64,000 nt of DNA from Candidatus Thorarchaeota archaeon (GCA_020348985.1 CP070761.1:862324-926323); one strand, 5' to 3'. Positions 6,073 to 54,841 are shown, counted from the first letter of the stretch. Notes: generated by a model from the letters alone, not told the origin. A program made the numbers and translations.

Positions 6073-6147
6073 ACAAAACGTCGTTGACCATAAGGAATAA
6101 ATGTGGAGGACAATGGCATCTCGTCAGAACGACAGGAGCATCATCAA

Positions 6148-6552
6148 ATGTACTTTGAAATCGGTGTGGCGTTTTGGTCTGTTGTAGTGTTCCTTTTCCT
6201 GGTATTCTGGATTGTACAAGAGGGATCCCGTTGGCAAAAGAATAGACTCCTCGGAGTGTTTGCGAGATTCATTCAACATTCTGCAGGAAGGGCGTTCGTC
6301 CTATTCTTCCTTCTAACAATACTGATTATTCCAGCGTCACTCTCAGTAATGTCTGGCTTATGGTATGATGCTTGGCTGGCCGGCGGAGGCAACGCAGGGT
6401 TTACTAACACAGTTCCTGTTGTCACGACCTTCCTTCTGATGTTCCTACTGCTTTCAGGAATGATTCCTGTAATGTGGTCATCCTTCAGAACCTGGCGCCA
6501 AGCCGTCAGAAGTGCCAGAGAAGTCAGAGTTCAGACAACTGCCGAAATGTAG
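6148..6552 (+). CDS. Hypothetical 3-TM membrane protein
   Basis: Three hydrophobic stretches. CAGGAG SD-like site before ATG 6148. Confidence 0.65.
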   Translation: MYFEIGVAFWSVVVFLFLVFWIVQEGSRWQKNRLLGVFARFIQHSAGRAFVLFFLLTILIIPASLSVMSGLWYDAWLAGGGNAGFTNTVPVVTTFLLMFLLLSGMIPVMWSSFRTWRQAVRSAREVRVQTTAEM

Positions 6553-6611
6553 TCAAATCGATGAAGTTATGCGGGTGCAATCCGCATTTCAGTCCATACG
6601 TATTCCTAGGA

Positions 6612-7532
6612 ATGATCCTCGTGAAATCTGTCGAACTAGCCGAAGGCGTTCACGTAGCCATAGGTCCTCATTTCCCTCAATGTAACACGGTTGTGCTAGT
6701 TTCCGAAACTGTCACAGTTATCGATCCTGGATGTCCTTTGGAGACCTTGAGATTCACATTACGAAAGCTTGGCAAGGAAATCAACGACATCGACTATGTT
6801 GTGCTCAGCCACATACATCCAGACCACATCACGCATGCATCAAGAATAGAAAGAACGTCAAGATGCAGAATCGTGGCGAACGATATTACTGCACCTCTCT
6901 TCGATGAGAAAGAGGAGATGAAATGCTTTCTAGGATTTCACAAGGGAGAATTGGTCAGACCTCTTTGGGAGAACTTGGTCAATGAACGGATGTATGGCGC
7001 CCTTGATGAAGGCAGAACGAATTTCGTTGTTAAGGATCAGGAAGAGATCAGTCTCGGAGATCACACTCTAAGGATGGTGTACACTCCAGGCCATTTGCCG
7101 GATCACATGTGCATTGAGCTGGTTGAGTCGAATCTCTTGTATTCGGCAGACATTGATTGCACAGAGTTCGGTCCTTTCTACGGCCACTGGAATTCGTCAA
7201 TCACTGAGTTCAAGCAATCAATAGAATTCATTCTCTCCAGCAACTACGAAGGGCTGATAAGTGGACACCTTGGGCAACCGCTGTTACGGGAATTCAAAGA
7301 CCCTCTGAAATCTTTCCTTCGTCAATTTGACGTTCGCGAGGACTTAGTTTTGCTCGAGATCTCCGGAGGGGCAAGAACCCTGGGTGAAATCATGGCTCAT
7401 CCACTAATCTACCCGTCTCTGTCAAACCCGGTATTCCTCTATTTTGAGAAGTGGATGATTGAACATCATGTTCAGGAGCTGCTCAAAAAGGGAAAGGTCT
7501 GGCTAAAGAAAAATCAAATCCTACCCACCTAG
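6612..7532 (+). CDS. MBL-fold metallo-hydrolase with C-terminal winged-helix-like extension
   Basis: IDPG, SHIHPDH, TPGH, SAD and SGH motifs. Start at ATG 6612 or GTG 6621. Confidence 0.88.
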   Translation: MILVKSVELAEGVHVAIGPHFPQCNTVVLVSETVTVIDPGCPLETLRFTLRKLGKEINDIDYVVLSHIHPDHITHASRIERTSRCRIVANDITAPLFDEKEEMKCFLGFHKGELVRPLWENLVNERMYGALDEGRTNFVVKDQEEISLGDHTLRMVYTPGHLPDHMCIELVESNLLYSADIDCTEFGPFYGHWNSSITEFKQSIEFILSSNYEGLISGHLGQPLLREFKDPLKSFLRQFDVREDLVLLEISGGARTLGEIMAHPLIYPSLSNPVFLYFEKWMIEHHVQELLKKGKVWLKKNQILPT

Positions 7533-40015: not shown

Positions 40016-41431
40016 CTACTCTTCGCGCCACTTTGCCTCTTGCAAGTATTTCGGAATCCCGCTAGAGTCCTGAGGACCGACCTTAACGGTCCATCCAGTG
40101 GTCTCCTCAGTCTCGCCACTGATTCTTGCGGCCATACCTGGACTGATCAGAATCTTGTGATTGACCTTCTCCGCGACTCCGTACTCTTCCATAGACTCAG
40201 CGATTTTTTCGGCTGTGAGTTTACGGCCTGCAACCGCAGACTGAACGCTCATTCCCTCTGTATCGACAACAACGAGCCATGCGTCAACATTGCCTTGCTT
40301 TATGTCGCTTTCAACTGTGAAGTATGTCAATGCGAAGTTTGTCGTGTACATCACGGGAGAGTCAGGACCTGCACTGCCGAATTTCATTAGGCCTGCTTCT
40401 ACTGCTACAGGCTTGACTGGATCAGTGTAGAGGTTGCTTCTCAAGAAGGTCTGGGGAAGATTCGTCCACATGTCAATGCTGTGAGTGACAATGATGTCTG
40501 AATATCTGATTATCATCGCAGACCCCGCAAGAACCTCATTCCATTTTGTGAGCTCAGGAGCTTCGCCTTCACGATGGCCCGCCCAAACTGTGATAGGAGC
40601 AGCAAGCAAAGGATAACCGAAGAGCTCGTTGTCATCGACAGTGGCAGCTCTTCGAAGCTGTGTGAAGTTGTCAACAGTCGTGCCCATTCCGGCCTGAAAC
40701 ACACTGCCCGGATCCATTACAATGTCTTCTATCCCCATCGCACGCAGAGTTGAAACGAGAGTAGCTAGGTTGTCCAAGCTCCCTGGCGCATAGGCTACAA
40801 CAGGAAGATTGTGCTTCAGAGCTAGTTCGCCAACAGTCTCCCAGCTATCAGGAGTTGCCGCGTAAAGCAGCGGTCGCTTGTCTGCAGTAGCATTTGCCGC
40901 GGCCGAAAGCATAGCTGGGTCAAGAGAACACAGAATGATGGGCCAGTCGGTGGTCTCTTCCAGAAGCTTAGCCGCCTTCGAGAAAGTTGCAGGGTCCTTT
41001 GAAACACCACGTAGAGCTATGCCGTCCAATCTGAGATCCTGGCCGATGTAGACATAGGTCCAGTCTTCTATTTCCTTAACTCTCTTCTTGAATTCATCTG
41101 GACTCAGATTGTCGGCAACGTCCAAGAATATCGAAGTGGGATTCGAGTACCTCAGGTCATGTCTGTAAAGGACAAGCTTGCCACCAATTGCCGCAGCCTT
41201 TTCTCCTCGACCTATCGTTATCTCTCTAACCGGAGGACGAATCAGTTCTTGGAGATCGGCTAGCTTCTTTGCGTACTTATCCTCTCGAAACAGTGGATAG
41301 CAAAGATCCACTTTGATCGTGTATTCTGCAAGCTTGGTGGCAAAAGCCATGCAGTTGGCTTCACCACACTCCTGACAATTGGTACCGGGGAGGAGCGGAT
41401 AGATGTCAAGCGGTCCTGCTAGTTTCGCCAT
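40016..41431 (-). CDS. cdhE: ACDS complex gamma subunit (corrinoid Fe-S protein large subunit)
   Basis: LLPGTNCQECGEANCMAFA, YTDPVKPVAVE, TTNFALTYFTVESD, VGPQDSS. Confidence 0.96.
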   Translation of the reverse strand: MAKLAGPLDIYPLLPGTNCQECGEANCMAFATKLAEYTIKVDLCYPLFREDKYAKKLADLQELIRPPVREITIGRGEKAAAIGGKLVLYRHDLRYSNPTSIFLDVADNLSPDEFKKRVKEIEDWTYVYIGQDLRLDGIALRGVSKDPATFSKAAKLLEETTDWPIILCSLDPAMLSAAANATADKRPLLYAATPDSWETVGELALKHNLPVVAYAPGSLDNLATLVSTLRAMGIEDIVMDPGSVFQAGMGTTVDNFTQLRRAATVDDNELFGYPLLAAPITVWAGHREGEAPELTKWNEVLAGSAMIIRYSDIIVTHSIDMWTNLPQTFLRSNLYTDPVKPVAVEAGLMKFGSAGPDSPVMYTTNFALTYFTVESDIKQGNVDAWLVVVDTEGMSVQSAVAGRKLTAEKIAESMEEYGVAEKVNHKILISPGMAARISGETEETTGWTVKVGPQDSSGIPKYLQEAKWREE

Positions 41432-42628
41432 TCATGCTCCCTCCGGGATGGTTACTGTTGTCCAGTCAGCGTAATCCTCAGGTTTCACATCGCGTCTTTC
41501 CATCAACCAGTCAATCAAGTCATGCAGTGTCTTAATTGCGGCAGGATGCATCATCATGAATAGGTCATTTCCAGCCAACAGAAGTGCAAGCGCAGTGACG
41601 CTTTCCCAGATCGGTCCTCTGAGCTCTCTCGGGCCGAGCTCCGGATTCTTTAGCCAAGCTTCTCTCGCAGCCCATGCGTTTGTTGTTCCGGAGCTTATTG
41701 GGTATTGCAGCTCCGAATCACCCAAGAGGCCCGCCAGCCTCATCCTCTGCATCATTGTGAAAGCGTACTCGAGACCATAGCCAAGCGCAGCAGTTGTTGG
41801 ATCAATAACAATCTGCTCGGGTTTGAGCCATTCTATCAATCGTCGATTTAGCTCCTTCTGCTGATTAATGTCCAACGACGTCCATGAGAGAACAACCTGA
41901 TCGTGTCTCTTGGCAGCCTCTGCAACTGGTTCATAAACGTCAACAGTGGCCGAACAAAGCAAGGTCCGCTCTCCTTCCGCTACCTCTGCAGCCTTGGCAA
42001 GAACAGGACCATCCTTCTCAGGATCTCCAGCCGACCCAACTAGAATCGGAACTCTGACGGCTTGAAGCACTTCCTCAACAGTCTTGGCAGCCTCATTAGG
42101 CGAAGTATCCTTTATCTGCCTGTCTGTACTTATCAGATGGACCGTGATTACATCGGCTCCGAACTTGTCGACGCAGAGCTTTGCCCATTCCGCTGGATCG
42201 TGCATAACCTCCTTGTAGTGTGCCTTGACCACGCTTGCCAGAGAGATCGGCATGTCAAAGACATCAGCCGCAATGATTGGACGATTCTTTGGAGGGGCCT
42301 GGAAGAGATCCCAAGCTGGAGCTGTGTGACCCCCTATCGTTATACTGTTGCTCCGAGATCCTCCCTCTCCCTTCGTTGCACCGATAGTGATCTCATGGAT
42401 TGTGCCCGTGTATTGTGGAAGCTTGGCTTGGAACTTGGTAGGAATCAAGGAGGTAGGTCTCGATGGCAACGCTGCTCTTGCTGCAGCTTGTGCCAACTGA
42501 CGAACCATCGGACGCAGGGCTACCTTTAGCTCGTCAACCTCTATGGTGACGTTTTCCAGCTCCAACTCAACGAACTCGCCCAGGAGCTCATCGAGTGGGT
42601 TGCTACGTCCTTCGTCCTGCTCAGTCAT
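41432..42628 (-). CDS. cdhD: ACDS complex delta subunit (corrinoid Fe-S protein small subunit)
   Basis: DVFDM, DPAEWAK, DINQQKELN, DPTTAALGYGLEY, NAWAAREAW. Confidence 0.96.
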   Translation of the reverse strand: MTEQDEGRSNPLDELLGEFVELELENVTIEVDELKVALRPMVRQLAQAAARAALPSRPTSLIPTKFQAKLPQYTGTIHEITIGATKGEGGSRSNSITIGGHTAPAWDLFQAPPKNRPIIAADVFDMPISLASVVKAHYKEVMHDPAEWAKLCVDKFGADVITVHLISTDRQIKDTSPNEAAKTVEEVLQAVRVPILVGSAGDPEKDGPVLAKAAEVAEGERTLLCSATVDVYEPVAEAAKRHDQVVLSWTSLDINQQKELNRRLIEWLKPEQIVIDPTTAALGYGLEYAFTMMQRMRLAGLLGDSELQYPISSGTTNAWAAREAWLKNPELGPRELRGPIWESVTALALLLAGNDLFMMMHPAAIKTLHDLIDWLMERRDVKPEDYADWTTVTIPEGA

Positions 42629-44028
42629 TTCTTTTTGTCACCTTTTCCGATCCTCTTGATAATGACCCTTTCAGCGAATATCTTTGCATTCTTGAAGATG
42701 ATCTCAATTCCTCCGCCAACACCTGGCAGTGCAGCCGTGAATTCGCCAGGAACTGCGACATAATCTTCAGCCGCACCAACGACGGCAGGTAATGCTTCTT
42801 CTTCTTCAACCTCAACCCAACGCTCAGCGACAGGGTGATTATTCTCCCTTAGGAAAGCCTTGAGCTCGTCGATGGAAGATACATCCTTCTCTGTCGGAAT
42901 CTTGTCTCTAACTGATTCGGGTATGAAGTCATAGACTCGTTCCTTGATTGTATCAGGAACCCAGACAATTCGATCCCAACCGCCGTCAACCTGAAGGAAG
43001 CGTGGAGACCGCATGTATTCAACTGCAATCCCATGGAAGCCGGGTATCTGACGACCTCCGGCTGTGGAATCTGCCATGCTGGAGAACGGAAGACCGTTTA
43101 CAGTTTCTCCTTTGTAGTCTCTATGGACAACTCCAAGTCCGTCAACTTCAGGAATCACGAATGCGATTGCTTCGAAGCATCCGCAACTTGTGTGTGGCTT
43201 ATCAAAGGCACTGTAAAGCGCTACAGAGGTCACTTTGCCAAGTGACTTCTCCGCATAGGCCTGATTTACGCCCGTATACTCTCCAGTGAACTCGTCGATT
43301 GTATCGCCTTTCGGAATCGAATATAGCGGTCCCTTGGGATCAACGCGAGCAGCCGCTCGGCCGTCAAACCAGCTAATTGCGCCACAGTTTGCGTAGCGCT
43401 GGGGGGTTATTGTGCAAACGTGTGTTGGTGCAAATGATTGGCAGAGTGAGCATCCGTAGAATGTATCGACATCAGCATCGCTGAGACCCCTGGCTCGTTC
43501 GTCTCGGGCATTGTATCTTGCGACCGCCTCATCGTAGCGACTCGCAATCTCATCAGGGTCTGTGATGAAGGTGATCTGAATCTTCTCTATGATATTCATC
43601 TCACTTTTGAAGAGTCGGATGAGAACCTTGCCAAGATGCTCCAGAGTGTCGAAGCCTTTCTGAAACGATTTCTTGTTGAGCCGGATCCAAATGTCATAAC
43701 GCTGGTTCAGGTGCATCATACCCTCAACGAAGTTGACATACTCGTGGATTCGCCTCTCGATCACACCTTCAAGGTCTGGTTCGATTTGACTACCGGCTAC
43801 TTCAATGAAGATTCCAAAGGGATGAAAACTCCCTTCCTCCATGTCCTTCAGGTCAGGTCCTATAATCATGACCTTTTCGTCTTCGACTTCTCCTTCTTCT
43901 CGTGCAAGGGCAAGCTCGAACTTCTTCTCCATCTTCGGACCTCCGAGCTCGACATACATGTCTTTGCCTCTTACCCTCTCTCCTTCGTATACAACTCCAA
44001 CGTCAACGGGGATATCTTCGAATGACAT
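42625..44028 (-). CDS. cdhC: Acetyl-CoA synthase, ACDS beta subunit
   Basis: YEGERVR, ERRIH, CSLCQSFAPTHVC, HTSCGCFE (A-cluster ligands). Confidence 0.97.
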   Translation of the reverse strand: MSFEDIPVDVGVVYEGERVRGKDMYVELGGPKMEKKFELALAREEGEVEDEKVMIIGPDLKDMEEGSFHPFGIFIEVAGSQIEPDLEGVIERRIHEYVNFVEGMMHLNQRYDIWIRLNKKSFQKGFDTLEHLGKVLIRLFKSEMNIIEKIQITFITDPDEIASRYDEAVARYNARDERARGLSDADVDTFYGCSLCQSFAPTHVCTITPQRYANCGAISWFDGRAAARVDPKGPLYSIPKGDTIDEFTGEYTGVNQAYAEKSLGKVTSVALYSAFDKPHTSCGCFEAIAFVIPEVDGLGVVHRDYKGETVNGLPFSSMADSTAGGRQIPGFHGIAVEYMRSPRFLQVDGGWDRIVWVPDTIKERVYDFIPESVRDKIPTEKDVSSIDELKAFLRENNHPVAERWVEVEEEEALPAVVGAAEDYVAVPGEFTAALPGVGGGIEIIFKNAKIFAERVIIKRIGKGDKKK

Positions 44029-44574
44029 CTACTTTCCTCCTCCGACCATTTTTAGTATTTCATCTAGTTCATCATGCCAACGGTTCTCTTTCATGTTTGG
44101 GAACGACCATTTTGCATGTGGCTGATAATGCCTGCCAAGTGTTATCGCTGTCATGTGATCTCCGAAGTTCATCACAGCTGAGAGTAATGTCCACTGCATA
44201 TAGTATGGTATGCCATAGACCAGAATGAGATCAAATGGGCCGTTTCCCTTGGGTCCAGTCCATTCAGGGTCTTGCAGGTAGAATGCAAGCTCCATTGCTC
44301 CCATTCTGGAGACTTCGTCAAAGCCCTTCTCGAGAAACGCCTTGATTGCATTTCCGGTGGCTATGATGGGTATCTTCGCTGCCTTCGAGAACTCTATTGC
44401 ATAGTCAACCATTGTGCCCTTTCGATGCTTCTGCGTTAAAGCCTCGGATCCGATGACCAACACGGGCTTCTTTGCCTTCTTGATGTCTCTTTCAATCTGG
44501 GCAGCCTTCGTAATCGCCTTGGCACTGTCAGGTCCACAGATTTCTCCAGTCTGCCATGGTATTGCACGCATCAT
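44029..44574 (-). CDS. cdhB: ACDS epsilon subunit
   Basis: PWQTGEICGP, IKKAKKPVLVIG, DPEWTG, YQPHAKWSFPN. Lies between cdhA and cdhC. Confidence 0.93.
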   Translation of the reverse strand: MMRAIPWQTGEICGPDSAKAITKAAQIERDIKKAKKPVLVIGSEALTQKHRKGTMVDYAIEFSKAAKIPIIATGNAIKAFLEKGFDEVSRMGAMELAFYLQDPEWTGPKGNGPFDLILVYGIPYYMQWTLLSAVMNFGDHMTAITLGRHYQPHAKWSFPNMKENRWHDELDEILKMVGGGK

Positions 44575-44576
44575 AT

Positions 44577-46922
44577 TCAGTCCGCACCTCCTGACATAAT
44601 CATACGCTTGAGAAGCGTCGGGTCAGGTATTCTACGCTCTTCCCAATCGTTCTCTTTCATTTGACCCAGAATCTTGTCTTTTAGAGTGATTGGAATATCA
44701 GAGTCACGTCTGATGTACGTCCAGACGTCATCAGGGAAATAGCCGTAATACTTCTCATGGACATCGATGTAGTGACTTAGCTTAATTGAGCGGCCTTTGC
44801 TTGTGTCATTGGGCCTCAAACAGAGCTTTGCCGTCAAGACATTGCATTCTTCCACAGTCTCAGCTGCGTAGAAGAGATGCTCAGGACCAGGCGCGACCGA
44901 AACACGGTCTCCTGTACGGGCATCCCACACAAGCCAGTCTTTCTCCTTGTCAGCTCTTCCCATAAGCATTCGACGGTACTTCGAGCCATGGGGTCCCACG
45001 ATAACTGGGACTCCGAGTCTCCAGAAGCCAGCTGCAATCGAAGCCGCTTTCTGTGACATTGCACCCCAAGAGATTCCTACTGCACCAACTCTGTTGTAGA
45101 TGTAGTCAGCAATCTCTTCGTAGTTGCCTCTAAGATTCCGCTTGGCAAAGATGGCTGCGATCTTGATGGCCGCTCCAGCAATGTGTGAGTTGGAGACACA
45201 AGACCCCACATTGACGACCATTCCGGCGTCGAACTCTCCATCACGCCTCTCGTAGATCGATTTACCTGCCTCATCCAGGACTTGTCCTGCACTCATAGCT
45301 GCACATCCTGAGGCGACTATGATGTACCTTCTACTGGCGAACTCCTCCATCATGTGGTGTACATCTTCACCACCGCCAGGGTAGTTTGCACAGCCAACAT
45401 GAGCAATGACTCCAGGTATCTCACCGAACACAATCGGTTGTCCAACTCGGCGGATTTCTGTGTCCTGAATAGCACCTCTTCCTGTTCTAACCATGAACTT
45501 CTCCTTGTCACATGATGGTTCAGCGGCCTTGACCATCCAACTATGTAGCAGATAGTCGTTAGGACAGGCAGACTCACATCGTGCACACCCAATGCAGTTG
45601 TGATAGATTTCCTCCAGAGGAGCGAAGTTACCTTGTTGAGCCGCTAAGACTGCCTCTTGGACTGGTTGGTCATTAGGACAGGCACGAACGCACTCCATGC
45701 ATTTCTTGCAATCCGCTGCCATCTTCTTGATCTTCGCCTTGCTGGGCAGGATTCCTTTCTTCTTGCGCTTGGGTTTGAGAGCGATGGCAACCTTGGCTGC
45801 AATCTCACCGACCTTCTTGTGGTCGCTCATGTAGACACCAGGTATCTTACCTGAAACAAGATCGTCAATTATCTCATCCACAGGATCATCTGACCTGTCA
45901 GGTAAGCCCATCACAGCCTTGTCACTTGTCGAAATGACTGCGGCCTTGACTTTCTGTGCTTCCTCTACGACGTTTGTGCGGACGCACTGCTCGTCAACGA
46001 TGATGACATCGGCTTTTCCGCTCCTGATGAATCTCAGTTGCCATGAAATCGGGCCAACGACCTTGGCATTGGGGTCTCTCCGAGTGATATCCCAGGCAGT
46101 GCAACAGATTCCACCGACTTCGATCTCATTACCGAGTTTCTTCTCAGTGATGTAGTCAGTAACAGCAGCGGCAGGAACGATATTGTGTCCGATGCACAGA
46201 ACAGTTGCCTTCTCAGGATCCAAATTACCGAAGCCGGCTTCAACAAGCGGCGCCTCTGGATCAGCCTGCGGGAAGTCTAACGTCGATATCTGAGCGAGGT
46301 CACCTATCTCGAGAGCTAGATGATCTGTCATTCCTGCGTGGAATACTTTACTCTCAAAATCCATCCAGTGTCCTTCTTGACCGGTTGCAGTCGCAGACAG
46401 AAGATGGGCCAGCTGACTCTCTGCGTAATCAAGAACTGCACTTGCATCTTCCAGCGTTCTCGGCCTCATTCCTGTTATCAAACGCGTAATCGGAGCATGG
46501 ATCTCAGTGCCAGGGCCTTGAATCAGTGGGGCCCTTGGACCATATTCGTCGATAAGATGGTCAACCAAATGTCTCGCATGTGCAAGATGTGCCGAGGTTC
46601 CAATGTTGGCAGCAGCTAATACAATCCTAGACTGTTGAGCCTGCATATTGATCCCACACGCACCCTTCTTGTTGCCTGTTAGGTCGCATTTTCCAAAGGT
46701 ACACAAGCAACACACCTGACAGTATGGCATGTAGGAGGGCTGGTACCTTGACAACAACTTGTGATCCCATGATCTGAGTGTTGTAGGTCCAGGCATTGGA
46801 GTCGGACCCATAGGTTCGTCCCAATCGTCATCAACTAGTTCGCCAATACTAATCTCAAGGCCTCTGAATCTGCCAAGACCGGTGGTTGCTTCATCACTTT
46901 TGATTCGCACTCTCTTCTTCAT
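44577..46922 (-). CDS. cdhA: CO dehydrogenase, ACDS alpha subunit
   Basis: EPMGPTP, CCLCTFGKC, GICCTA, DEQC, CKKCMECVRACP, CIGCARCESACP, GCANYP, GSCVSN. ATG 46922 is more likely than 47015. Confidence 0.97.
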   Translation of the reverse strand: MKKRVRIKSDEATTGLGRFRGLEISIGELVDDDWDEPMGPTPMPGPTTLRSWDHKLLSRYQPSYMPYCQVCCLCTFGKCDLTGNKKGACGINMQAQQSRIVLAAANIGTSAHLAHARHLVDHLIDEYGPRAPLIQGPGTEIHAPITRLITGMRPRTLEDASAVLDYAESQLAHLLSATATGQEGHWMDFESKVFHAGMTDHLALEIGDLAQISTLDFPQADPEAPLVEAGFGNLDPEKATVLCIGHNIVPAAAVTDYITEKKLGNEIEVGGICCTAWDITRRDPNAKVVGPISWQLRFIRSGKADVIIVDEQCVRTNVVEEAQKVKAAVISTSDKAVMGLPDRSDDPVDEIIDDLVSGKIPGVYMSDHKKVGEIAAKVAIALKPKRKKKGILPSKAKIKKMAADCKKCMECVRACPNDQPVQEAVLAAQQGNFAPLEEIYHNCIGCARCESACPNDYLLHSWMVKAAEPSCDKEKFMVRTGRGAIQDTEIRRVGQPIVFGEIPGVIAHVGCANYPGGGEDVHHMMEEFASRRYIIVASGCAAMSAGQVLDEAGKSIYERRDGEFDAGMVVNVGSCVSNSHIAGAAIKIAAIFAKRNLRGNYEEIADYIYNRVGAVGISWGAMSQKAASIAAGFWRLGVPVIVGPHGSKYRRMLMGRADKEKDWLVWDARTGDRVSVAPGPEHLFYAAETVEECNVLTAKLCLRPNDTSKGRSIKLSHYIDVHEKYYGYFPDDVWTYIRRDSDIPITLKDKILGQMKENDWEERRIPDPTLLKRMIMSGGAD

Positions 46923-47125
46923 TTTCTTGTGCAATCCCCGTGGATGATGGTCGCGTCGGTTACAGCGCGCCATAAATGGTTTGTGAACCGTCAAGAACGA
47001 CCATGAAGTCAGCATATTAAGTTACAGTTCGTAACCCAAAGTGAGAAAAATGAGCTCCATGTCATGTTTGTACGAATGATAAGCTATGGAATGTAAGGAA
47101 TATGCAACCGCGCAAAGTCGTCGTT

Positions 47126-47920
47126 TCAGCGCAGGTTACTACGCAGGTGATCCTTAATCTTCCGCAACTCTGACATTCCCGGTGATTCGGGATTAAGATC
47201 AATCGGGGCCACGCCTTTACGGTCTGCTTCTTTTATGGTCTCGTCCTGAGGGATAATGCCAAGGAGAGGAACACCTTCTTCATCCACTCGACGACGAATC
47301 ATCTCCTCATCTTCATACGTGGCCACCTTGTTGCCTATCGCCAAGATGCGTCCAACATCAATATCTTCTGCCAGTTTCCGAATCTTTGCGAGTATGTCAA
47401 GTGACCTTCGCCCAGGTTCTGCAACAACTAAGAGTGCATCCATGCCTCTAGTCGTACCACGTCCCAGATTCTCAACGCCTGCATCCATATCCATGACGAA
47501 GGCTTCATCGGTTCCCAATATCAGATGTCGCATTAGTTGCTTGAGTAGAGTTGCGGATGGACACATGCAGCCAGAGTCACCTATGTCCACGGTCCCAGCA
47601 ACTAGAAGACTAACATTGTCTGGACCTGAAACGGCGAACTTCTCGGCCAAATCGTCCACAATCGGATTCATCTTGAAGTACATCTTGTATGATTGCGCCG
47701 GATCAATCTCCAGACGTTCCTTAAGCAGCTCCTCATTTTCAGTAAGTGGAACAATCTGTGCGGCGACCTCTTCGGAGATTCCAAGTGCTGACCAAAGGGT
47801 ATAGCTAGGATCAGCATCTACTGCGAGAATTCTAAGACCGTCTTGACCTAATAGCCTTGCAAGCGTCCCTGCAACAGTTGTCTTTCCGACGCCACCTTTG
47901 CCCGCAACTGCAATCTTCAT
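47126..47920 (-). CDS. cooC: Second CooC nickel-insertion ATPase
   Basis: MKIAVAGKGGVGKTT, DADP, SGCMCP, DMDAGVENLGRG. Confidence 0.92.
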   Translation of the reverse strand: MKIAVAGKGGVGKTTVAGTLARLLGQDGLRILAVDADPSYTLWSALGISEEVAAQIVPLTENEELLKERLEIDPAQSYKMYFKMNPIVDDLAEKFAVSGPDNVSLLVAGTVDIGDSGCMCPSATLLKQLMRHLILGTDEAFVMDMDAGVENLGRGTTRGMDALLVVAEPGRRSLDILAKIRKLAEDIDVGRILAIGNKVATYEDEEMIRRRVDEEGVPLLGIIPQDETIKEADRKGVAPIDLNPESPGMSELRKIKDHLRSNLR

Positions 47921-47946: not shown

Positions 47947-49230
47947 TTAATCTCTTACCCTAACGGCATGCAGAAGTCTTCTGAGAACCTCGGTTTCCGA
48001 CAACTGGCCGTTTCCATCTTTGTGGAATGGAATAAGCTGAATGGGTTCTTGATCAACACGCAACATTGTCTCTTCTGTTAGGACCATGTTGGAACCCGCA
48101 GGAATGAACACGGTCGCTCGAGAGGGTGTGAGACCGTCAGGAGGTCCGATGTAGATAAGAGGCAAGCTGGACATACAGGCTCCTAGCTCTCCAGGTAGCG
48201 TCGCAACTATGTCAGATCCGACCACAAGCGCGGCATCGAATCTCTCCCCCAGCAGCAGACTATGCATATTCTGTCCTTCACTATTCGAGGCGCTCCCAGT
48301 CGAGTAGTCGACGGCTGATGGGAATCCCGTTGATCCATTCAACGTTTGCATTGCACCAATCGTGTTCGTATCGGAAGCGACCGGCATAGCATGGGCAGCT
48401 CGACCGTTCTTACGAATGGATTCGATCAACTCCTTTAGTGCCATCAAGTTCTCTGAAGCATAACCAGAAGCGAATAGGCCGCTTCCGTAGAAGAAGACTG
48501 TACTATCTGAGTTCTTGAGCTTATTTGTGAGACTGATGAGTTCGACAGCTGGAATTCCTGCGACCTCTTCTACAATCGATGATGTTCCGGTCAGCTCACC
48601 ACTTATTGCTCTCATTATGTCAGCATCGGAACCGAATGGAATCACCAGCCGATGATTTGCTATCTTCATAGTCTCGGTCTCACGAACATCTACAACCACG
48701 ACTGCTCTGCTTTCAACTCCCTCAGGTATTCTTTCACCTTTGGGAAGTACGGAGAACCTGCTTACGTGTCTGTGACTCGACTCTGTGGGGTTTGAGCCCC
48801 AGTATATCACGACTTCAGCATTGTTTCTAGCATCATCCAAAGTGTAGTCGATGTTCATATCATGCAGCTCGCTAGAGAAAGCTCGAAGAGCTCCGAGACT
48901 TGCTTGTGTATCGAAGAACGCCTTGCAACTTGCAGCAATGTCAAGACCCACCTTGATAGCATCATTAGTGGATCGTGTCCAGCCATAGACCAAAGGCCGC
49001 TTTGCTTCCCTTAGGATTTTGGCCGCTGCCGCCACAGCCTCATCCAAAGAAGCTGAAACAGACTTGCCACTCTTCCTGATAGAGGATTTCGATTCATTTC
49101 TCTTGAGGGCCACTTCCAAGCACTCATGACCGAGACGACAGAGTCCAAGTGACTTCAATTCGCCCTCTTTATACTCGGCCTTGACATCATCACAGAGAAG
49201 CGAACAACCGTCACATACAAGATCCTTCAC
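47947..49230 (-). CDS. fwdB: Formylmethanofuran dehydrogenase subunit B homolog with degenerate active site (FhcB-like)
   Basis: CDGCSLLCDD..CRLG, AKRPLVYGW, VIYWGSNP...RHVSR are present. The canonical ASVCHG and RGHYN motifs are replaced by ASLGAL and ASDTN. Confidence 0.85.
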   Translation of the reverse strand: MKDLVCDGCSLLCDDVKAEYKEGELKSLGLCRLGHECLEVALKRNESKSSIRKSGKSVSASLDEAVAAAAKILREAKRPLVYGWTRSTNDAIKVGLDIAASCKAFFDTQASLGALRAFSSELHDMNIDYTLDDARNNAEVVIYWGSNPTESSHRHVSRFSVLPKGERIPEGVESRAVVVVDVRETETMKIANHRLVIPFGSDADIMRAISGELTGTSSIVEEVAGIPAVELISLTNKLKNSDSTVFFYGSGLFASGYASENLMALKELIESIRKNGRAAHAMPVASDTNTIGAMQTLNGSTGFPSAVDYSTGSASNSEGQNMHSLLLGERFDAALVVGSDIVATLPGELGACMSSLPLIYIGPPDGLTPSRATVFIPAGSNMVLTEETMLRVDQEPIQLIPFHKDGNGQLSETEVLRRLLHAVRVRD

Positions 49231-49239
49231 TCGATCACC

Positions 49240-49713
49240 TCACCAAATCTCGATAGCGTCGGTGCAACAGTACTGCTCACATACTCTACAATTGAGACGG
49301 TCCGGTGGGAATCTGCGGCATTTTTGGAGATTGATTATCTTCGATATGCCATTTTCCACACGAAAGACGGTCTCTTCGGTCATTGCAGCCTTTCCAAGAC
49401 TTGTCGGCGGTTCGGCTGCAACATCAACTGGACACACTACAACACAGTTTCCGCAGCCTGTGCATTTCTCTTCATCAAGCTTGATACCAGTTTCTTCGGC
49501 CGTTAGCATGGGAGCGACAAGTTCTCTCAGTTTTGCAAGATTCTCCTCGAAACCCGATTCAAGCAAGGGAGGACAGTCATCTGGTTGGACGTCTCCTAGG
49601 GCTAGCTTCGTCGCAAAGGCCATGCAGGTCTTGGGCTCACATAGTCTGCAGTTTGTCTTTGGAAGCAGATTGTAAAGCTCCATCGGGTTTAGTTTCACGT
49701 TCTTTTTCACCAT
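49240..49713 (-). CDS. fwdG: FwdG/FmdG-type ferredoxin with N-terminal Fe-S domain
   Basis: LLPKTNCRLC...CMAFA...CPPL, CTGCGNCVVVCP, CRR...CRVCEQYC. Directly upstream of fwdB. Confidence 0.8.
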   Translation of the reverse strand: MVKKNVKLNPMELYNLLPKTNCRLCEPKTCMAFATKLALGDVQPDDCPPLLESGFEENLAKLRELVAPMLTAEETGIKLDEEKCTGCGNCVVVCPVDVAAEPPTSLGKAAMTEETVFRVENGISKIINLQKCRRFPPDRLNCRVCEQYCCTDAIEIW

Positions 49714-49868
49714 GGAAGCCTGTTCTTAGGCGTTTCGAGCGGTTTTGTGACCTTTACAGCTATTCCACAAGAATTATCCGGTATAGTCAAGACCGCTTCA
49801 TGTCCACATTGGCAAAGTAATATCAACATCTAGATAGGGACACGTCGAGTGTCTAGCATCGAAAACCG

Positions 49869-52340
49869 GTGAAAAATGTGAGTCCTAGCAAGAAAGGCAA
49901 GAAGAAGGCGCTTACCGACAAGACAGCTCTCTTCATTTGCCGCTGCGGCTCGAACATTTCTGGTGTAATTGATGTTGATTCTCTTCGTGACGAATATGAA
50001 GCCAAAGGAATCCCAATAGTCATCGTGGATGATCATCTTTGCTCTGAGCAGGGCGTTCAGACTTTCGTTGACGCTATCAAGAAGAGCAAGGCCGAGAAAG
50101 TTGTCATGGCAGGATGTTCTCCACTGTTACACTGGGACTTGTTTTCTGAAGCTATGGCAGAAGCGGGGCTTGATGCAGGCCATCTTCAAATCGCGAACAT
50201 CCGCGAGCAAGGAAGCTGGGTGCATTGGGATAAACCAAAGACGGCTACTTCGAAGGCCTCCGCAATCATCGACACAAGCATCTCACAGGTACAGGATTCT
50301 GAACCAATTGCCAAGCATTCTGTTCCTGTGACTCAACGAGTTTTGGTAGTCGGAGGGGGAGTTGCAGGACTCACATCAGCCCTCACAATGGCGGATGCTG
50401 GAATCGAGACTGTGATTGTTGAGAGGGAAGGATTCCTAGGAGGCCACATGGCGAAATGGGACAAGCTCTTCCCTACTTCAGATTGCAGCATTTGTATCCT
50501 GGGCCCCGTGATGACACGTGTCGCTCGCCATCCGTTGATTCGAGTGATTACCAGGGCTGAACTTGAGTATGTTCGAGGCTCAGTTGGGAGCTACATAGCA
50601 TCGATAAAGCAGCATGCTCGCTATGTCGATCTGGAAACATGCACCGGGTGTAACAAGTGTATCGAGGTCTGCCCAGTTGATGTCCCAGATGAATACAACT
50701 ATGGTCTTGGAAAGAGAAAGGCCATGGTCCGTCCGTCGAGTGATACTGTCCCTCTTGCACCCTACATAGACATGGAGAATTGCATAGGTTGCCAAAGCTG
50801 CTCTGGCGTCTGCGAGCCGAAAGCCCTGAGATACGACGATGAAGATAACCATGAGACCATTGAGTTCGGCGCGATTGTTGTAGCTACGGGATTCAAGGCA
50901 TTTGATGCGTCTCTGGTGGAGGAGTTTGGCTATGGTGAGAATCCGGATGTGGTCACCTCTCTCGAGTTTGAAAGAATGGCTAATCCAGAAGGACCGACAG
51001 GTGGCAGGATAGTAAGTCCATCGACAGGTAAACCCCCAAAGCAAGTCGTGTTTGTGGAATGCGTTGGCAGTCGATCGGAGAGATTCAACAGACCGTATTG
51101 CAGCCGAGTTTGCTGTACAGCATCTGTCAAAGAAACACTGCAATTGAAAGAACAGATACCTGACAGTGAAGTCTACGTCTTCTACACGGACATGAGAGTG
51201 TTCGGGAAGGGATACGAAGAACTGTATGAAAGAGCATCCAATGACCATGGCGTCCGATTCGTTCGAGGAGCAGTAGGTGACATCATCCTTGATCCAGTAT
51301 CAGGGAAGACCACGATTAGAGGAGAGGACACACTTCTTGGGAGGATGATTGATGTTGAGGCGGACCTTGTAGTATTGATGGTGGGCATGGAACCAGATCA
51401 CAGCAATGCGTACCTTTCGAAGCTGCTCCGGATTCCACTTGATGAAAATGGATTCTTCCTTGAGGACCATCCGAAGCTCAGGCCGAGTAGTACATCTTCT
51501 AAAGGCATTGTAATCGCTGGAACTGCGCAAGGTCCGAAGGACATCGCAGACGCTGTTGCTCATGCCGGGCTCGCATCATCAAGAGTTTTGACTCTGTTAT
51601 CTCGCGGAGATGTTATCACTGACGCGTGCGTTCCATCATTCGATTCTGAGCTATGCATTGGATGCAAGCTCTGTGAACAGAACTGCTCTCCAAACGCAAT
51701 CAGAGTCAGAGACAGCGTGGCTGAGATAAACACTGCTGCCTGTAAGGCCTGTGGTGCTTGTGTTGCTGCTTGTCCCTCGGGTGCATTGGACCTGCCGTGT
51801 CTCACGAACGAGCAACTACTGAAGGCCACAAGGACTGCAGTTGAGCGAAATCCGTTAAGGCCCGCTATAGTGGGGTATCTTTGCAGATGGTGCGCCTATA
51901 GCGCTGCGGACAAAGCTGGCATATCTAGGACCACGTACCCTGCCAACATCATTCCAATCTTAGTACCGTGCACAGGCCGCCTGAATTCGCAGACAGTCCT
52001 TACGGCATTTGCTGAGGGTGCTGATGGTGTTGCAGTAATAGGATGTTACGAACAGGATTGTCATTACAGATCGGGGGCAAAGAATGCCCGAGAGAGAATG
52101 GAGAACCTCAGAAGTGTCATCATGGAAGCAGGTATTGACGGTCGAAGACTGTACTTCGGAAGTGTATCTGCATCAGAGGGAAGCCACTACGCTGACCATG
52201 TTAGACGGTTCGTGAGTCTGGTTAAGAAACTTGGACCTCTTGGTTCTGAGTTGAGTGAGGAAACAGTAGCATTGTATGGAAAAGAGCCTGATGTTGCCAT
52301 CACCTCCAATCCTCACGGCGAAGGAGGAGAGGGGGATTAG
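49869..52340 (+). CDS. hdrA: Heterodisulfide reductase subunit A fused to MvhD
   Basis: CRCGSNI, GCSP, GGGVAG, DCSICI, inserted 2x[4Fe-4S], LEFER, CVGSR..YCSRVCC...K, C-terminal ferredoxin, then MvhD motifs LCRWCAY, VPCTGR, GC...CHY. Confidence 0.95.
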   Translation: MKNVSPSKKGKKKALTDKTALFICRCGSNISGVIDVDSLRDEYEAKGIPIVIVDDHLCSEQGVQTFVDAIKKSKAEKVVMAGCSPLLHWDLFSEAMAEAGLDAGHLQIANIREQGSWVHWDKPKTATSKASAIIDTSISQVQDSEPIAKHSVPVTQRVLVVGGGVAGLTSALTMADAGIETVIVEREGFLGGHMAKWDKLFPTSDCSICILGPVMTRVARHPLIRVITRAELEYVRGSVGSYIASIKQHARYVDLETCTGCNKCIEVCPVDVPDEYNYGLGKRKAMVRPSSDTVPLAPYIDMENCIGCQSCSGVCEPKALRYDDEDNHETIEFGAIVVATGFKAFDASLVEEFGYGENPDVVTSLEFERMANPEGPTGGRIVSPSTGKPPKQVVFVECVGSRSERFNRPYCSRVCCTASVKETLQLKEQIPDSEVYVFYTDMRVFGKGYEELYERASNDHGVRFVRGAVGDIILDPVSGKTTIRGEDTLLGRMIDVEADLVVLMVGMEPDHSNAYLSKLLRIPLDENGFFLEDHPKLRPSSTSSKGIVIAGTAQGPKDIADAVAHAGLASSRVLTLLSRGDVITDACVPSFDSELCIGCKLCEQNCSPNAIRVRDSVAEINTAACKACGACVAACPSGALDLPCLTNEQLLKATRTAVERNPLRPAIVGYLCRWCAYSAADKAGISRTTYPANIIPILVPCTGRLNSQTVLTAFAEGADGVAVIGCYEQDCHYRSGAKNARERMENLRSVIMEAGIDGRRLYFGSVSASEGSHYADHVRRFVSLVKKLGPLGSELSEETVALYGKEPDVAITSNPHGEGGEGD

Positions 52341-52344
52341 TCCA

Positions 52345-53700
52345 ATGGAGAGACAAGATGTCTCCGTAGGCGAGAGACCTGTGGTTTCCATGGACGTAAC
52401 TGAAGCAAAAGTACGCTTGGAATGGAATACGTCTCTTCTGCTGCGAAGACTTGATTATGATATCGACAAGTGTGTTGGTTGCAGTCTATGTCTTCCCTGT
52501 CCGTGGGAGGCAATTACTCTGGGACCGGTTGCTGAGACCGCGGCCGGACGTATTGAGGGGGCTCCTCTTGTGATGGTGGATCCAGACATCTGTACTTTCT
52601 GCGGTCTGTGTGATTCGGCCTGCGTGTTCAAGGCCTTTGATGCTTCATATGAGGGCGAGTCTGCGATCAATGAGTTCGTTAGGATTGATGGGGTCCATGT
52701 TGTTGACAATGAGAAGTGTGCTCCGTGTCTCCTTTGTGCTAAAGTCTGTCCAACTGGAGCTCTTGAGGTTGACGTGAAGGTCGATCATAAGAAGGACCTT
52801 GTAGTCTACAGGGGCGACGTCTCGGCTGAAGGTACAATCAAGATCGATGAGGACAAATGCTCCTATTGTGGACTGTGTGAGATTCTGTGTCCCGAGGCCA
52901 TCAAGATATTCTGGTCAGAGTCAGCCGAACCACCAGATTTCAGACCTGCCGTTGGGATTCGCGTCGTAGAGGAGGAATGTGACTACTGCGGTCTGTGCGA
53001 AGGTATCTGTCCCGATGACGCGATCAAAGTTGAATGCACAAAATCGAGTTCGAGGAAAATAACTGAGCCCAAGATAAGTGGGGAGCTTCGTCACGATGAC
53101 GAGAAGTGTGTGAAATGTTCTCTCTGTGCAGGCGTTTGTCCCTATGATGCAATCAAGGTGGAGAAGCCCTTCTCAGGCGAAGTGAAAGTCCAGCATCTTG
53201 AACGATGTGATCCCACAGGATGTGTCAATTGCTTCAACATTTGTCCTGTCAAAGCAATCTACCCCACGGGCACCGAAAGTAAGTTGGAGGTACTCGACGG
53301 AAACTGCATCTACTGCGGCGCCTGTGAAAACGCATGCCCAGACGAAGTCCTCGTAGTGTCAAGAAGTGGATACAAACTAGACGAACTTGAAAGAGCAAGA
53401 GAGTGGGAGAAAGCCAGGAAGCACTTCTTTGATGCAGTTGTTGGCATCGAAAAGACACCTAGCGGCCTCTTCGAGCGAGACTTGAACGTAGTTGAAGCAA
53501 GGCAACGACCTCAGGACGTTGCTATTGACGATGAGTGGGACACAGAGGATGGTGTTAGAGCCGCAGCCAAGAACCTAGTTGGCTCAGTAAGCCGACTGCT
53601 GAGTCGGGACCCCAGCCTTCAGATGCATTTGGAAAGAGGCAGAACTGAAAAGGTCATTGAGAAGATCAAGGAGCAGAGTAAAGGCTCTCCAAAGAAGTGA
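52345..53700 (+). CDS. fwdF: FwdF-type polyferredoxin (8 x [4Fe-4S])
   Basis: Eight CxxCxxCxxxC-type motifs. Start at ATG 52345, right after the hdrA stop. Confidence 0.85.
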   Translation: MERQDVSVGERPVVSMDVTEAKVRLEWNTSLLLRRLDYDIDKCVGCSLCLPCPWEAITLGPVAETAAGRIEGAPLVMVDPDICTFCGLCDSACVFKAFDASYEGESAINEFVRIDGVHVVDNEKCAPCLLCAKVCPTGALEVDVKVDHKKDLVVYRGDVSAEGTIKIDEDKCSYCGLCEILCPEAIKIFWSESAEPPDFRPAVGIRVVEEECDYCGLCEGICPDDAIKVECTKSSSRKITEPKISGELRHDDEKCVKCSLCAGVCPYDAIKVEKPFSGEVKVQHLERCDPTGCVNCFNICPVKAIYPTGTESKLEVLDGNCIYCGACENACPDEVLVVSRSGYKLDELERAREWEKARKHFFDAVVGIEKTPSGLFERDLNVVEARQRPQDVAIDDEWDTEDGVRAAAKNLVGSVSRLLSRDPSLQMHLERGRTEKVIEKIKEQSKGSPKK

Positions 53701-54064
53701 CTTCTTCGCTGCTCCGGGAAACAGATACCGGCAGCCCGTGAAGCTGGGCAATGCCTTCATCTCCGTTTACGCGGGCCAAGTGCAAAGACCAGGGCCCTCG
53801 TGGCATGGTCGCGAGGCCTTCTTTCGTTCTCTCACTTTGAAAAGCTTGAACATTGATTCTCTTTGAACTAGTCTTGATTGAGACAACATCCCCATCTTTC
53901 AGACCAATTCTCTGAAAATCGCTCCTGTTAAGCCAGACAAGTGCGGCTGCCATTCGATAGCTCTCAGACGCTGTGTTAGCTACGGACTTGATATCTGCCT
54001 CAAATGAGTGCACGATTACCAGCTTGAGCTGGACTTCTGGAAAGAGGAAGTCGCCCAGGGACAT
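53666..54064 (-). CDS. fwdD: Formylmethanofuran dehydrogenase subunit D homolog, degenerate
   Basis: Y..AAA.VWLN..D...IGLKDGDVVSI...MPRGPW...PVSV...EEV fits the FwdD/molybdopterin-dinucleotide-binding fold. Confidence 0.75.
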   Translation of the reverse strand: MSLGDFLFPEVQLKLVIVHSFEADIKSVANTASESYRMAAALVWLNRSDFQRIGLKDGDVVSIKTSSKRINVQAFQSERTKEGLATMPRGPWSLHLARVNGDEGIAQLHGLPVSVSRSSEEVTSLESLYSAP

Positions 54065-54193: not shown

Positions 54194-54841
54194 TTGATGA
54201 TGGCAGACGACATTCTAGAATACTGGATGAGTCTCGCTCGAGAACTAGCATCAAGATTCAACGTAGAAGAATTCGATACAAGTTCAGCATTCTGGAGTTG
54301 GGACAATTTCAAAGACGATATTCGCACACTGAAAGGAAGATTGGGAGTTGGCAATGATTTCATTGATTTCCTTGGATACCACGTAGATTTCGAATCAGGT
54401 GAAACAACTGATACGTTGGCGGGCATTCCGGGAAGGACCTCCAAGCTTGTCCCATTTCTTTACTACTATAGCAAGGCAAAGGATGTCGGCATTGCAGACG
54501 AATGGGAGAAGTTCTCAGCACTGAAAGGTTCGTGGGCCTGTAGACATTCATTTGATGAACAAGATCTTGAGACTCTGAGAAGGAAGTACGTTGAGGACAA
54601 AGAAAAGCTATTCGAGACTCTTGAGAAGCTCGGCGGAGAAAGGGCTGGTCACGGTGATGATGCCTATGTTGTATCATTTCTGCCAATGGTGAAAGTGCTT
54701 CTTGTATTTGAGGAGGAGGATGAGGAGTTCCCTGCGACCGCAAGACTGCTGTTCGACAAGAATTCGATTTTCTATGAACCACACGAAATGCTGGGTTCAA
54801 TCGGGTGGATGATGGCTAGCAGAGTTGCGATTACAGGTTGA
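54194..54841 (+). CDS. DUF3786 domain protein
   Basis: FLG, LYYY, W..F..L.G, GDDAY..SFLP, EEDEEFPATARLLFD. Confidence 0.8.
   Translation: MMMADDILEYWMSLARELASRFNVEEFDTSSAFWSWDNFKDDIRTLKGRLGVGNDFIDFLGYHVDFESGETTDTLAGIPGRTSKLVPFLYYYSKAKDVGIADEWEKFSALKGSWACRHSFDEQDLETLRRKYVEDKEKLFETLEKLGGERAGHGDDAYVVSFLPMVKVLLVFEEEDEEFPATARLLFDKNSIFYEPHEMLGSIGWMMASRVAITG

Follow-up and report, generated by a model that had tools for sequence, protein, structure and literature searches.

A second Fwd-type gene set beside the ACDS genes

We analyzed a 64,000-nt window from a Candidatus Thorarchaeota genome (genome coordinates 862324-926323) using open reading frame (ORF) listings and family scans. Positions of window genes are counted over that whole window. 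At 47947-54064 lie five genes resembling parts of formylmethanofuran dehydrogenase (Fwd) and heterodisulfide reductase (Hdr). Two are on the minus strand: a fwdB paralog (47947-49230; 427 aa) and a gene for a three-cluster Fe-S protein, here called FeSG (49240-49713; 157 aa). A divergent intergenic region of 155 bp (49714-49868), where we presume the promoters to be, separates them from two plus-strand genes, an hdrA-mvhD fusion (49869-52340; 823 aa) and a FwdF/FmdF-like polyferredoxin gene (52276-53700; 474 aa). A fwdD paralog (53666-54064, minus strand; 132 aa) converges on the polyferredoxin gene, and the two 3' ends overlap by 35 nt. The ORF coordinates thus bear out an earlier sequence-only reading of this DNA, in which fwdG-fwdB was divergent from hdrA-mvhD-fwdF, with fwdD converging.

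On the minus strand, the FeSG gene and the fwdB paralog are followed by a gene for a CooC-like P-loop ATPase (47126-47920) and by cdhA (44577-47015), cdhB (44029-44574), cdhC (42625-44028), cdhD (41432-42628), and cdhE (40016-41431), which encode subunits of the archaeal CO dehydrogenase/acetyl-CoA synthase (ACDS). The ATPase has a Pfam CbiA match and a NifH-like match, and its position between the fwdB paralog and cdhA is conserved. From its family assignment we take it to be a nickel-insertion accessory of carbon monoxide dehydrogenase (CODH). FeSG is spaced 9 nt from the fwdB paralog, which lies 26 nt from cooC, and the cdh gaps are at most 110 nt. Judged from strand and spacing, this run of genes, FeSG through cdhABCDE, is an apparent single operon. 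Genome searches returned no match within the window for fwdA, fwdC, hdrB, a [NiFe] hydrogenase, or PF00384, in keeping with the gene absences that the sequence-only reading had listed.

The catalytic residues of FwdB have been named as Cys118, His119, and Arg288 (PMC6926001). Although FwdB of M. wolfeii (5T5I_B) aligns with the paralog end to end (E = 6e-57), the ASVCHGP that contains Cys118-His119 has become ASLGALR, and the PMRGHYN around Arg288 reads PVASDTN, so that Cys/His/Arg is replaced by Gly/Ala/Ala. The paralog has seven cysteines, none of which is a conserved substitute ligand at the metal site, whereas those of the N-terminal [4Fe-4S] cluster (C6, C9, C13, and C31) are present and invariant across the family. 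The protein scored 308.5 bits against TIGR03129 (FwdB/FmdB), below the cutoff of 327.8 and far from the 541 bits of the canonical copy in the same genome. It has the N-terminal cluster motif expected of that family and lacks the score, the Cys/His/Arg residues, and the FwdA and FwdC partners. A Pfam scan gave no Molybdopterin (PF00384) match. Its relatives form more than 100 clusters at 90% identity, are 40 to 70% identical to it, bear Thorarchaeota or other Asgard labels, and, with few exceptions, likewise give no Pfam Molybdopterin match. When 113 of them were aligned with controls, the Cys position was Gly in over 90% of the family and the Arg position was never Arg; the Fe-S cysteines were kept.

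Despite these losses, the full MopB/FwdB fold is confidently predicted to be retained. An AF2 model built from a 30-sequence alignment reached a pLDDT of 85.6 and a TM score of 0.86 to 0.88 against solved FwdB structures (5T5M_B, 8RJA_B, and 7BKB_H), and the next structural matches were NuoG of complex I and then, weakly, FhcB (6S6Y_F; TMq 0.65). The FwdD paralog has a PF01568 match of 44.8 bits and the MopB domain IV fold with altered motifs. The canonical TGRT..QG has become HSFE.D, Leu stands in for the Asn of GP[WY]AN and His for the Lys of P.[FY]K, and the N terminus has acquired a conserved M-(A/S)LGDFLFP. Taken together, the alignments support the view that the pair lacks the residues for CO2/formate chemistry and would be unable to reduce CO2 or oxidize formate. 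The sequence-only reading had reported an intact N-terminal cluster motif in FwdB and lost catalytic motifs in both subunits. Both statements hold, and the alignment also yields no conserved Cys, Ser, or Asp as a replacement ligand; its term "pterin-less" was an inference rather than an observation.

The pair could instead bind a pyranopterin dinucleotide, with or without W or Mo, in the absence of a protein ligand, and form a redox site or carry out chemistry other than that of CO2/formate. Arsenite oxidase has a pterin metal site without a protein ligand. Family-invariant WGxxP.ES.HRH, D181-x-R183-x-T185, G249-x-G251, D340, and R391-x-D393 are what a bound pterin would lead one to expect, as are the invariant Fe-S cluster beside the former site, a FwdD partner with conserved motifs of its own, a MoeA gene in the genome, and relatives in the same clade that keep the Cys (triads CHS, CHA, CQA, and CQV). 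We nonetheless regard this alternative as improbable. Not only does Gly occupy the ligand position in most of the family with no conserved Cys, Ser, or Asp to replace it, but a loop of about 22 residues after the former Arg site is deleted in most members, the PF00384 match is gone, and the FwdD motifs TGR..QG, GP[WY]AN, and P.[FY]K are all altered. In addition, WGxxP..HPRH and GT.yR.D persist in unrelated degenerate FwdB lineages and may be structural, and the FwdB paralog has an evolutionary rate about threefold that of canonical FwdB.

In contrast to the former catalytic site, the Fe-S and flavin motifs are intact. FeSG has 13 Cys in three cluster motifs. Its residues 76-157 resemble FwdG (9sfi_U, 5e-11; 5t5i_G, 4e-8), forming a 2x[4Fe-4S] ferredoxin, and residues 8-80 resemble PF04060, the N-terminal Fe-S domain of the large subunit (CdhE) of the corrinoid iron-sulfur protein and of RnfB; RnfB-type matches (TIGR01944 and 8ahx_B) were also found. 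The polyferredoxin is homologous to FwdF/FmdF (5T5I_F, 1e-43; 7BKB_K, 2e-43) and has eight four-Cys motifs and a C-terminal extension of about 95 aa; its 223 bits against NF042909 (FwdF/FmdF) are below the equivalog cutoff of 375, and the assignment stands on the eight motifs and the core homology. In the fusion protein, residues 12-658 align with solved HdrA (8RVU, 608 bits; 5ODC, 602 bits) and residues 664-791 with MvhD (FlpD match, 1.3e-40). LEFER aligns with LELER and CCTASVK with CCMYIMK of solved HdrA, and all cluster motifs are conserved. The best model by a wide margin was NF040770 (HdrA2), at 896.7 bits against a cutoff of 1100; a single chain that combines HdrA with MvhD and carries the FAD and Fe-S motifs places the protein in the HdrA2 class. 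For these three proteins the sequence-only reading fared well: its eight clusters in FwdF, its intact HdrA and MvhD clusters, and its flavin-adjacent Glu (LEFER) and Lys (CCTASVK) agree with the motif counts and alignments. Its "FwdG" has the intact Fe-S Cys motifs it described and is not a plain FwdG, being fused to a PF04060 domain.

The solved homologs of these partners sit in one complex: FwdF (5T5I_F and 7BKB_K), FwdG (9sfi_U and 5t5i_G), and HdrA and MvhD (8RVU, 5ODC, and 7BKB). A predicted complex of CdhA with FeSG gave an ipSAE of 0.00 in both runs, which we take as evidence neither of binding nor of its absence. Taken at its longest, the polyferredoxin ORF shares 64 nt with hdrA-mvhD; reading of the translation pointed to an ATG at 52345, right after the hdrA stop, as a possible alternative start.

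Conservation, co-occurrence, and the wider clade

In the closed 3.16-Mb genome, fwdD, fwdB, and fwdA form an intact operon near 2.79 Mb. Its FwdB (541 bits) keeps SSVCHGP and PMRGHFN, and its FwdA (677 bits), the only strong FwdA in the genome, is encoded 1.9 Mb from the five-gene module. Both fwdC and ftr are at 1.78 Mb. The search outside the window also returned seven HdrB homologs, none adjacent to the module, two [NiFe] hydrogenase loci, another molybdopterin oxidoreductase, and MoeA. Measured by its genes, then, the module is a second, non-catalytic Fwd set and not the genome's Fwd. The expectation in the sequence-only reading that this locus would change how Wood-Ljungdahl CO2 fixation is inferred from fwd annotations is weakened, given intact fwdDBA, fwdC, and ftr in the same genome and canonical FwdB in 32 of 41 relatives.

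When species-representative genomes were scanned, 40 loci were returned, all labeled Thorarchaeota or Promethearchaeota (in one, L061, CP070658.1, the scaffold is interrupted by 100-N gaps). The order is essentially invariant in about 40 Thorarchaeota species, with DUF3786, the fwdD paralog, polyferredoxin, and hdrA-mvhD divergent from FeSG, the fwdB paralog, cooC, and cdhA-E. Identity to the window's proteins across these loci was highest for FeSG (82 to 90%), followed by CdhA (75 to 84%), CooC (72 to 79%), HdrA-MvhD (62 to 70%), the polyferredoxin (58 to 71%), the FwdD paralog (41 to 52%), and the FwdB paralog (40 to 49%). FeSG is thus the cluster's most conserved gene, and the fwdB and fwdD paralogs are the fastest evolving. 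In six genome pairs, dN was 0.53 to 0.72 for the FwdB paralog and 0.15 to 0.55 for canonical FwdB; in pairs within the family, the ranges were 0.53 to 0.60 and 0.15 to 0.23, a difference of about threefold. Synonymous sites were saturated (pS 0.75 to 0.84), and we therefore relied on pN and on the rate relative to canonical FwdB rather than on dN/dS.

Rapid evolution, with identities of 40 to 52% against 58 to 90% for the neighbors, is what one would see if the fwdB and fwdD paralogs were decaying pseudogenes. That reading is refuted for practical purposes. Frames are intact across about 40 species and over 100 clusters, the 30-sequence FwdB alignment has 49 invariant columns, pN is about half of saturated pS, and the predicted fold is confident. 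The pattern fits relaxed but real constraint, with both presumably dead subunits clearly maintained. The loss and the synteny are shared by about 40 Thorarchaeota species and by a second Asgard family, and are not private decay in one genome.

The same loci bear on a proposal made in the sequence-only reading, that the module is an archaeal Fhc-like formyl-methanofuran hydrolase or formate-exchanging complex. A dead B subunit is a hallmark of bacterial Fhc (PMC6926001), and FhcB was among the weak structural matches of our model. Yet FwdA/FhcA, FwdC/FhcC, and Ftr genes are absent from the cluster in all of the approximately 40 loci, and the one strong FwdA belongs to the canonical operon. FhcB, moreover, has neither an Fe-S domain nor a FwdD (PMC6926001), whereas the FwdB paralog has both, and an Fe-S/flavin wire would have no role in a hydrolase. 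With the FhcA, FhcC, and FhcD (Ftr) partners missing, we consider an Fhc-like enzyme highly improbable.

We examined co-occurrence with ACDS within the window's own taxonomic family, calling the FwdB paralog at more than 470 bits. It was found only in genera g1, g3, g6, g8, and g15, all five of which have cdhA. A cdhA match was present in those genera and in g13 and was not found in the ten others, whereas canonical fwdB also occurred in g5, g7, g9, g10, g14, and g16, where there was no cdhA match. Among genomes sampled in both searches, cdhA was present in 13 of 13 with the fwdB paralog, which in turn was present in 0 of 19 without a cdhA match.

To place the FwdB paralog more broadly, we searched 1.8 billion representatives and built a tree. 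The protein groups with many other non-canonical archaeal FwdB paralogs in one large clade (genes denoted fwdB' below, with their FwdD counterparts as fwdD'), in which Arg288 is missing in almost all members and the Cys is kept in many. The constant neighbor of fwdB' is the PF04060-plus-ferredoxin protein, FeSG. An Asgard family (f12) has the Thorarchaeota gene order. In a second Asgard family (f16; L084) and a Logan contig, the order is ftr, then, further along, FeSG, fwdB' (CHA), hdrA-mvhD, polyferredoxin, fwdD', hdrC, hdrB, cooC, and cdhA. A contig labeled Thermoproteota/Korarchaeota (L063) has cdhDCBA, fwdD', polyferredoxin, and hdrA-mvhD divergent from FeSG and fwdB' (CHS). In Baldrarchaeia (L068), hdrBC, fwdD', a fwdA-like gene, polyferredoxin, and hdrA-mvhD are divergent from FeSG and fwdB' (CQA). 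In a Methanosarcinaceae-related metagenome-assembled genome (MAG; L087), polyferredoxin and hdrA-mvhD are divergent from thioredoxin, FTR-beta-like, FeSG, fwdB' (CQV), and fwdD'. Some loci consist only of FeSG-fwdB'-fwdD', the "fwdG2B2D2" arrangement listed for Methanosarcina, and hdrBC is within the cluster in L067 and L084.

These contexts suggest that the five-gene core is old and widespread, that the Thorarchaeota and f12 loci are its most degenerate form, and that ACDS, HdrBC, the FwdA-like protein, and thioredoxin/FTR are lineage-specific additions to it. The earlier statement that the CO2-reducing end had been removed was accordingly too local: Arg288 is already missing in the FwdB2-like clade, and Thorarchaeota appear at the far end of a series.

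A possible electron wire to ACDS

We propose that the locus encodes a derivative of the Hdr-Fmd type in which a dead FwdBD scaffold helps exchange low-potential electrons with ACDS, a reading to which we give a probability of roughly 0.45. The module would descend from an archaeal Hdr-Fmd electron-bifurcating CO2-reducing complex. HdrA-MvhD, with its FAD and Fe-S clusters, would bind the eight-cluster polyferredoxin, which would be joined through three-cluster FeSG to the [4Fe-4S] cluster of the FwdB-FwdD pair in one Fe-S wire, the pair persisting as an Fe-S-bearing scaffold or adaptor. The low-potential end may exchange electrons with ACDS, either feeding the reduction of CO2 to CO or accepting electrons from CO oxidation, and HdrBC-type partners may be encoded elsewhere and act in trans, following the example of Methanosarcina HdrA2B2C2. 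Gene content, residue losses, conservation, synteny, and co-occurrence are observed directly. Complex formation we infer from homology to the solved Fwd and Hdr-Fmd complexes, and the scaffold role, the ACDS link, and the direction of electron flow are likewise proposed.

The wire would most likely serve ACDS because its genes share a block with cooC-cdhABCDE and, in the family sampled, occur only alongside cdhA. The formyl-methanofuran and CO2/CO couples have similarly low potentials, which fits such a link. A connection to ACDS had been offered in the sequence-only reading. That putative connection has gained an invariant adjacency, an apparently co-operonic layout, and genus-level co-occurrence in its favor. 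There is also precedent in M. acetivorans, where HdrA2, itself a fusion of HdrA with MvhD, shares its operon with a polyferredoxin induced by acetate and takes CODH/acetyl-CoA synthase (CODH/ACS) electrons via ferredoxin, and where HdrB2C2 is encoded distantly from HdrA2 (PMC5296606).

Several observations weigh against an ACDS-linked wire. In M. acetivorans, the polyferredoxin is not needed for transfer from CODH/ACS to HdrA2B2C2 in vitro (PMC5296606). The Thorarchaeota cluster has no gene for a mid-potential donor or a high-potential acceptor, and bifurcation therefore cannot be closed on paper. The FwdB paralog keeps dinucleotide-binding-type motifs (WGxxP..HRH, DxRxT, GxG, and GT..R.D), so that a bound pterin and residual chemistry are possible. 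Because the module occurs without adjacent cdh in Baldrarchaeia L068 and the Methanosarcinaceae-related L087, ACDS is not its universal partner. Finally, since the fwdB paralog and cdh are neighbors, their co-absence in MAGs is not independent evidence, although the genus-level pattern is.

As the chief alternative, the module would be a free-standing ferredoxin oxidoreductase of the HdrA2 type that works with soluble ferredoxin and with HdrBC-like partners in trans. FeSG would then be a ferredoxin dock, the FwdB-FwdD pair a largely vestigial scaffold, and adjacency to cdh a matter of Wood-Ljungdahl co-regulation. This would match the HdrB2C2 in trans and soluble ferredoxin of M. acetivorans (PMC5296606), the seven HdrB homologs elsewhere in the genome, and the RnfB-type match of FeSG. 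The hdrBC genes inside the cluster in L067 and L084, and the modules lacking cdh in L068 and L087, point the same way. It accounts less well for strict adjacency to cdhA together with genus-level co-occurrence in Thorarchaeota, for FeSG and the fwdB paralog heading cooC-cdhABCDE on the same strand with short gaps, and for the 82 to 90% identity of FeSG, which suggests several constrained interfaces. On balance, we find it doubtful. A more specific form of the ACDS link is unlikely on present evidence: a flavin-based, electron-bifurcating HdrA2 complex would dock on ACDS through FeSG and a cofactor-less FwdB-FwdD adaptor, and, without free ferredoxin, bifurcated low-potential electrons would go straight into the reduction of CO2 to CO or electrons derived from CO would be confurcated. 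In that case the Ni-Fe C-cluster would have replaced a tungstopterin site as the terminal CO2 reductase of an ancestral Hdr-Fmd machine.

Relation to known systems and neighboring observations

The closest described parallel is M. acetivorans HdrA2 (MA2868) with its polyferredoxin (MA2867), which is like the module in having a fusion followed by a polyferredoxin gene, with hdrBC not adjacent, and which is tied to CODH/ACS-derived electrons and acetate metabolism, a connection to ACDS electrons that the two would share (PMC5296606). Unlike that operon, the Thorarchaeota pair is divergent from FeSG, the fwdB paralog, and cooC-cdh, and convergent with the fwdD paralog. In addition, CoM-S-S-CoB is unlikely as an acceptor because the Thorarchaeota host is not a methanogen, and F420H2 is a doubtful donor, as the closed genome gave no match for CofH (FO synthase). 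One FrhB/FdhB-family protein is encoded at genome positions 1531643-1532089; in view of the missing CofH match, self-made F420 is doubtful.

Methanosarcina fwdG2B2D2 is the same set of PF04060-containing FwdG-like, FwdB-like, and FwdD-like proteins, lacks fwdA and fwdC, and is in the same clade as the FwdB paralog; in M. acetivorans the fwdG2B2D2 gene is expressed constitutively (PMC2838876). Methanosarcina FwdB2 keeps the Cys (CQV) where the Thorarchaeota protein has Gly. In L087, a set of this type is divergent from hdrA-mvhD-polyferredoxin exactly as in Thorarchaeota; unlike the Thorarchaeota module, that locus has thioredoxin and FTR-beta-like genes and no adjacent cdh. Both hdrA2-polyferredoxin and fwdG2B2D2 have been annotated in Methanosarcina (PMC5296606, PMC2838876). 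Since M. acetivorans, which has both, is amenable to genetics, the question is open to bench work.

In the methanogen Fdh-Hdr-Fmd and Mvh/Vhu-Hdr-Fwd supercomplexes (7BKB, 9SFI, and 9SW6; PMC13580544, PMC13518236), homologous HdrA, MvhD, FmdF/FwdF, FwdG, FwdB, and FwdD make up a single wire that leads from the bifurcating FAD to the site of CO2 reduction. Our cluster differs from these in having no FwdA or FwdC, no HdrBC, and no donor module (Mvh, Fdh, or Elp), and in having a destroyed catalytic site and a link to the ACDS genes. With HdrBC, a donor module, and a catalytic FmdABCD all absent from the cluster and the window, it is not a member of that class. The FmdF of Asgard archaea and Bathyarchaeales has been reported as the source of Methanomicrobiales FmdF, and FmdF polyferredoxins of groups 3 to 6 outside classical methanogens are explicitly described as uncharacterized.

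Cofactor-less MopB scaffolds are known in FhcB (6S6Y; PMC6926001), in ElpA of Elp-Hdr (8RVU; PMC12350162), and in NuoG of complex I; there the fold has been kept after catalysis was lost, as proposed here for the FwdB paralog. In FhcB, however, both the Fe-S domain and FwdD are gone, and ElpA is without the whole MopB domain, whereas the FwdB paralog, with its presumed loss of cofactor, retains the complete fold together with the Fe-S cluster, a partner FwdD, and several motifs of the nucleotide-binding type. Our literature search found no description of the joined module, its linkage to ACDS, or the Cys-less Asgard form of FwdB.

Asgard archaea have been read as Wood-Ljungdahl acetogens or organotrophs largely by annotation, and the source of electrons low enough in potential for CO2 reduction is unsettled. 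The module is a conserved, ACDS-linked candidate for supplying them. It would also offer a case from nature in which the wire of a bifurcating Hdr-Fmd machine outlasted the inactivation of its catalytic head. There is also a consequence for annotation. Proteins of the FwdB paralog family carry the JGI name "formylmethanofuran dehydrogenase subunit B"; since they bear that name without that chemistry, Fwd copy counts in Asgard, Korarchaeota-labeled, and Methanosarcina genomes probably overstate catalytic Fwd.

Several neighboring genes merit mention. A DUF3786 protein (54194-54841, plus strand), on which our literature search found nothing, has kept its place at the edge of the module in at least 24 Thorarchaeota loci (L023-L062); the window copy has no Cys motif. 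In the Asgard f12 locus, a 574-aa protein without a Pfam family is encoded between hdrA-mvhD and polyferredoxin (L083:13803-15527, plus strand). The thioredoxin and FTR-beta-like genes between hdrA-mvhD and FeSG in the Methanosarcinaceae-related MAG (L087:5727-6442) hint at a protein disulfide as the high-potential acceptor there. FwdA-like amidohydrolases, 27 to 30% identical to canonical FwdA, accompany FeSG-fwdB' in Baldrarchaeia (L068:2185-3735) and another Asgard family (L086:7784-9118) and may form with them a second, divergent, possibly catalytic Fwd-type enzyme.

In the Thorarchaeota genome itself, some of the many HdrA paralogs have an in-frame TGA. Two of these (G000:C1:2640177-2641511 and 5908-7230, both minus strand) have a single one each and are possible selenocysteine HdrA proteins of the sort reported in Asgard selenoproteomes. 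A pyruvate-dehydrogenase-type set of E1 alpha/beta and E2 genes (L012:9735-13153; about 2.793 Mb) is the immediate divergent neighbor of the canonical fwdD-B-A operon, an unusual set for a Wood-Ljungdahl archaeon that is strictly anaerobic.

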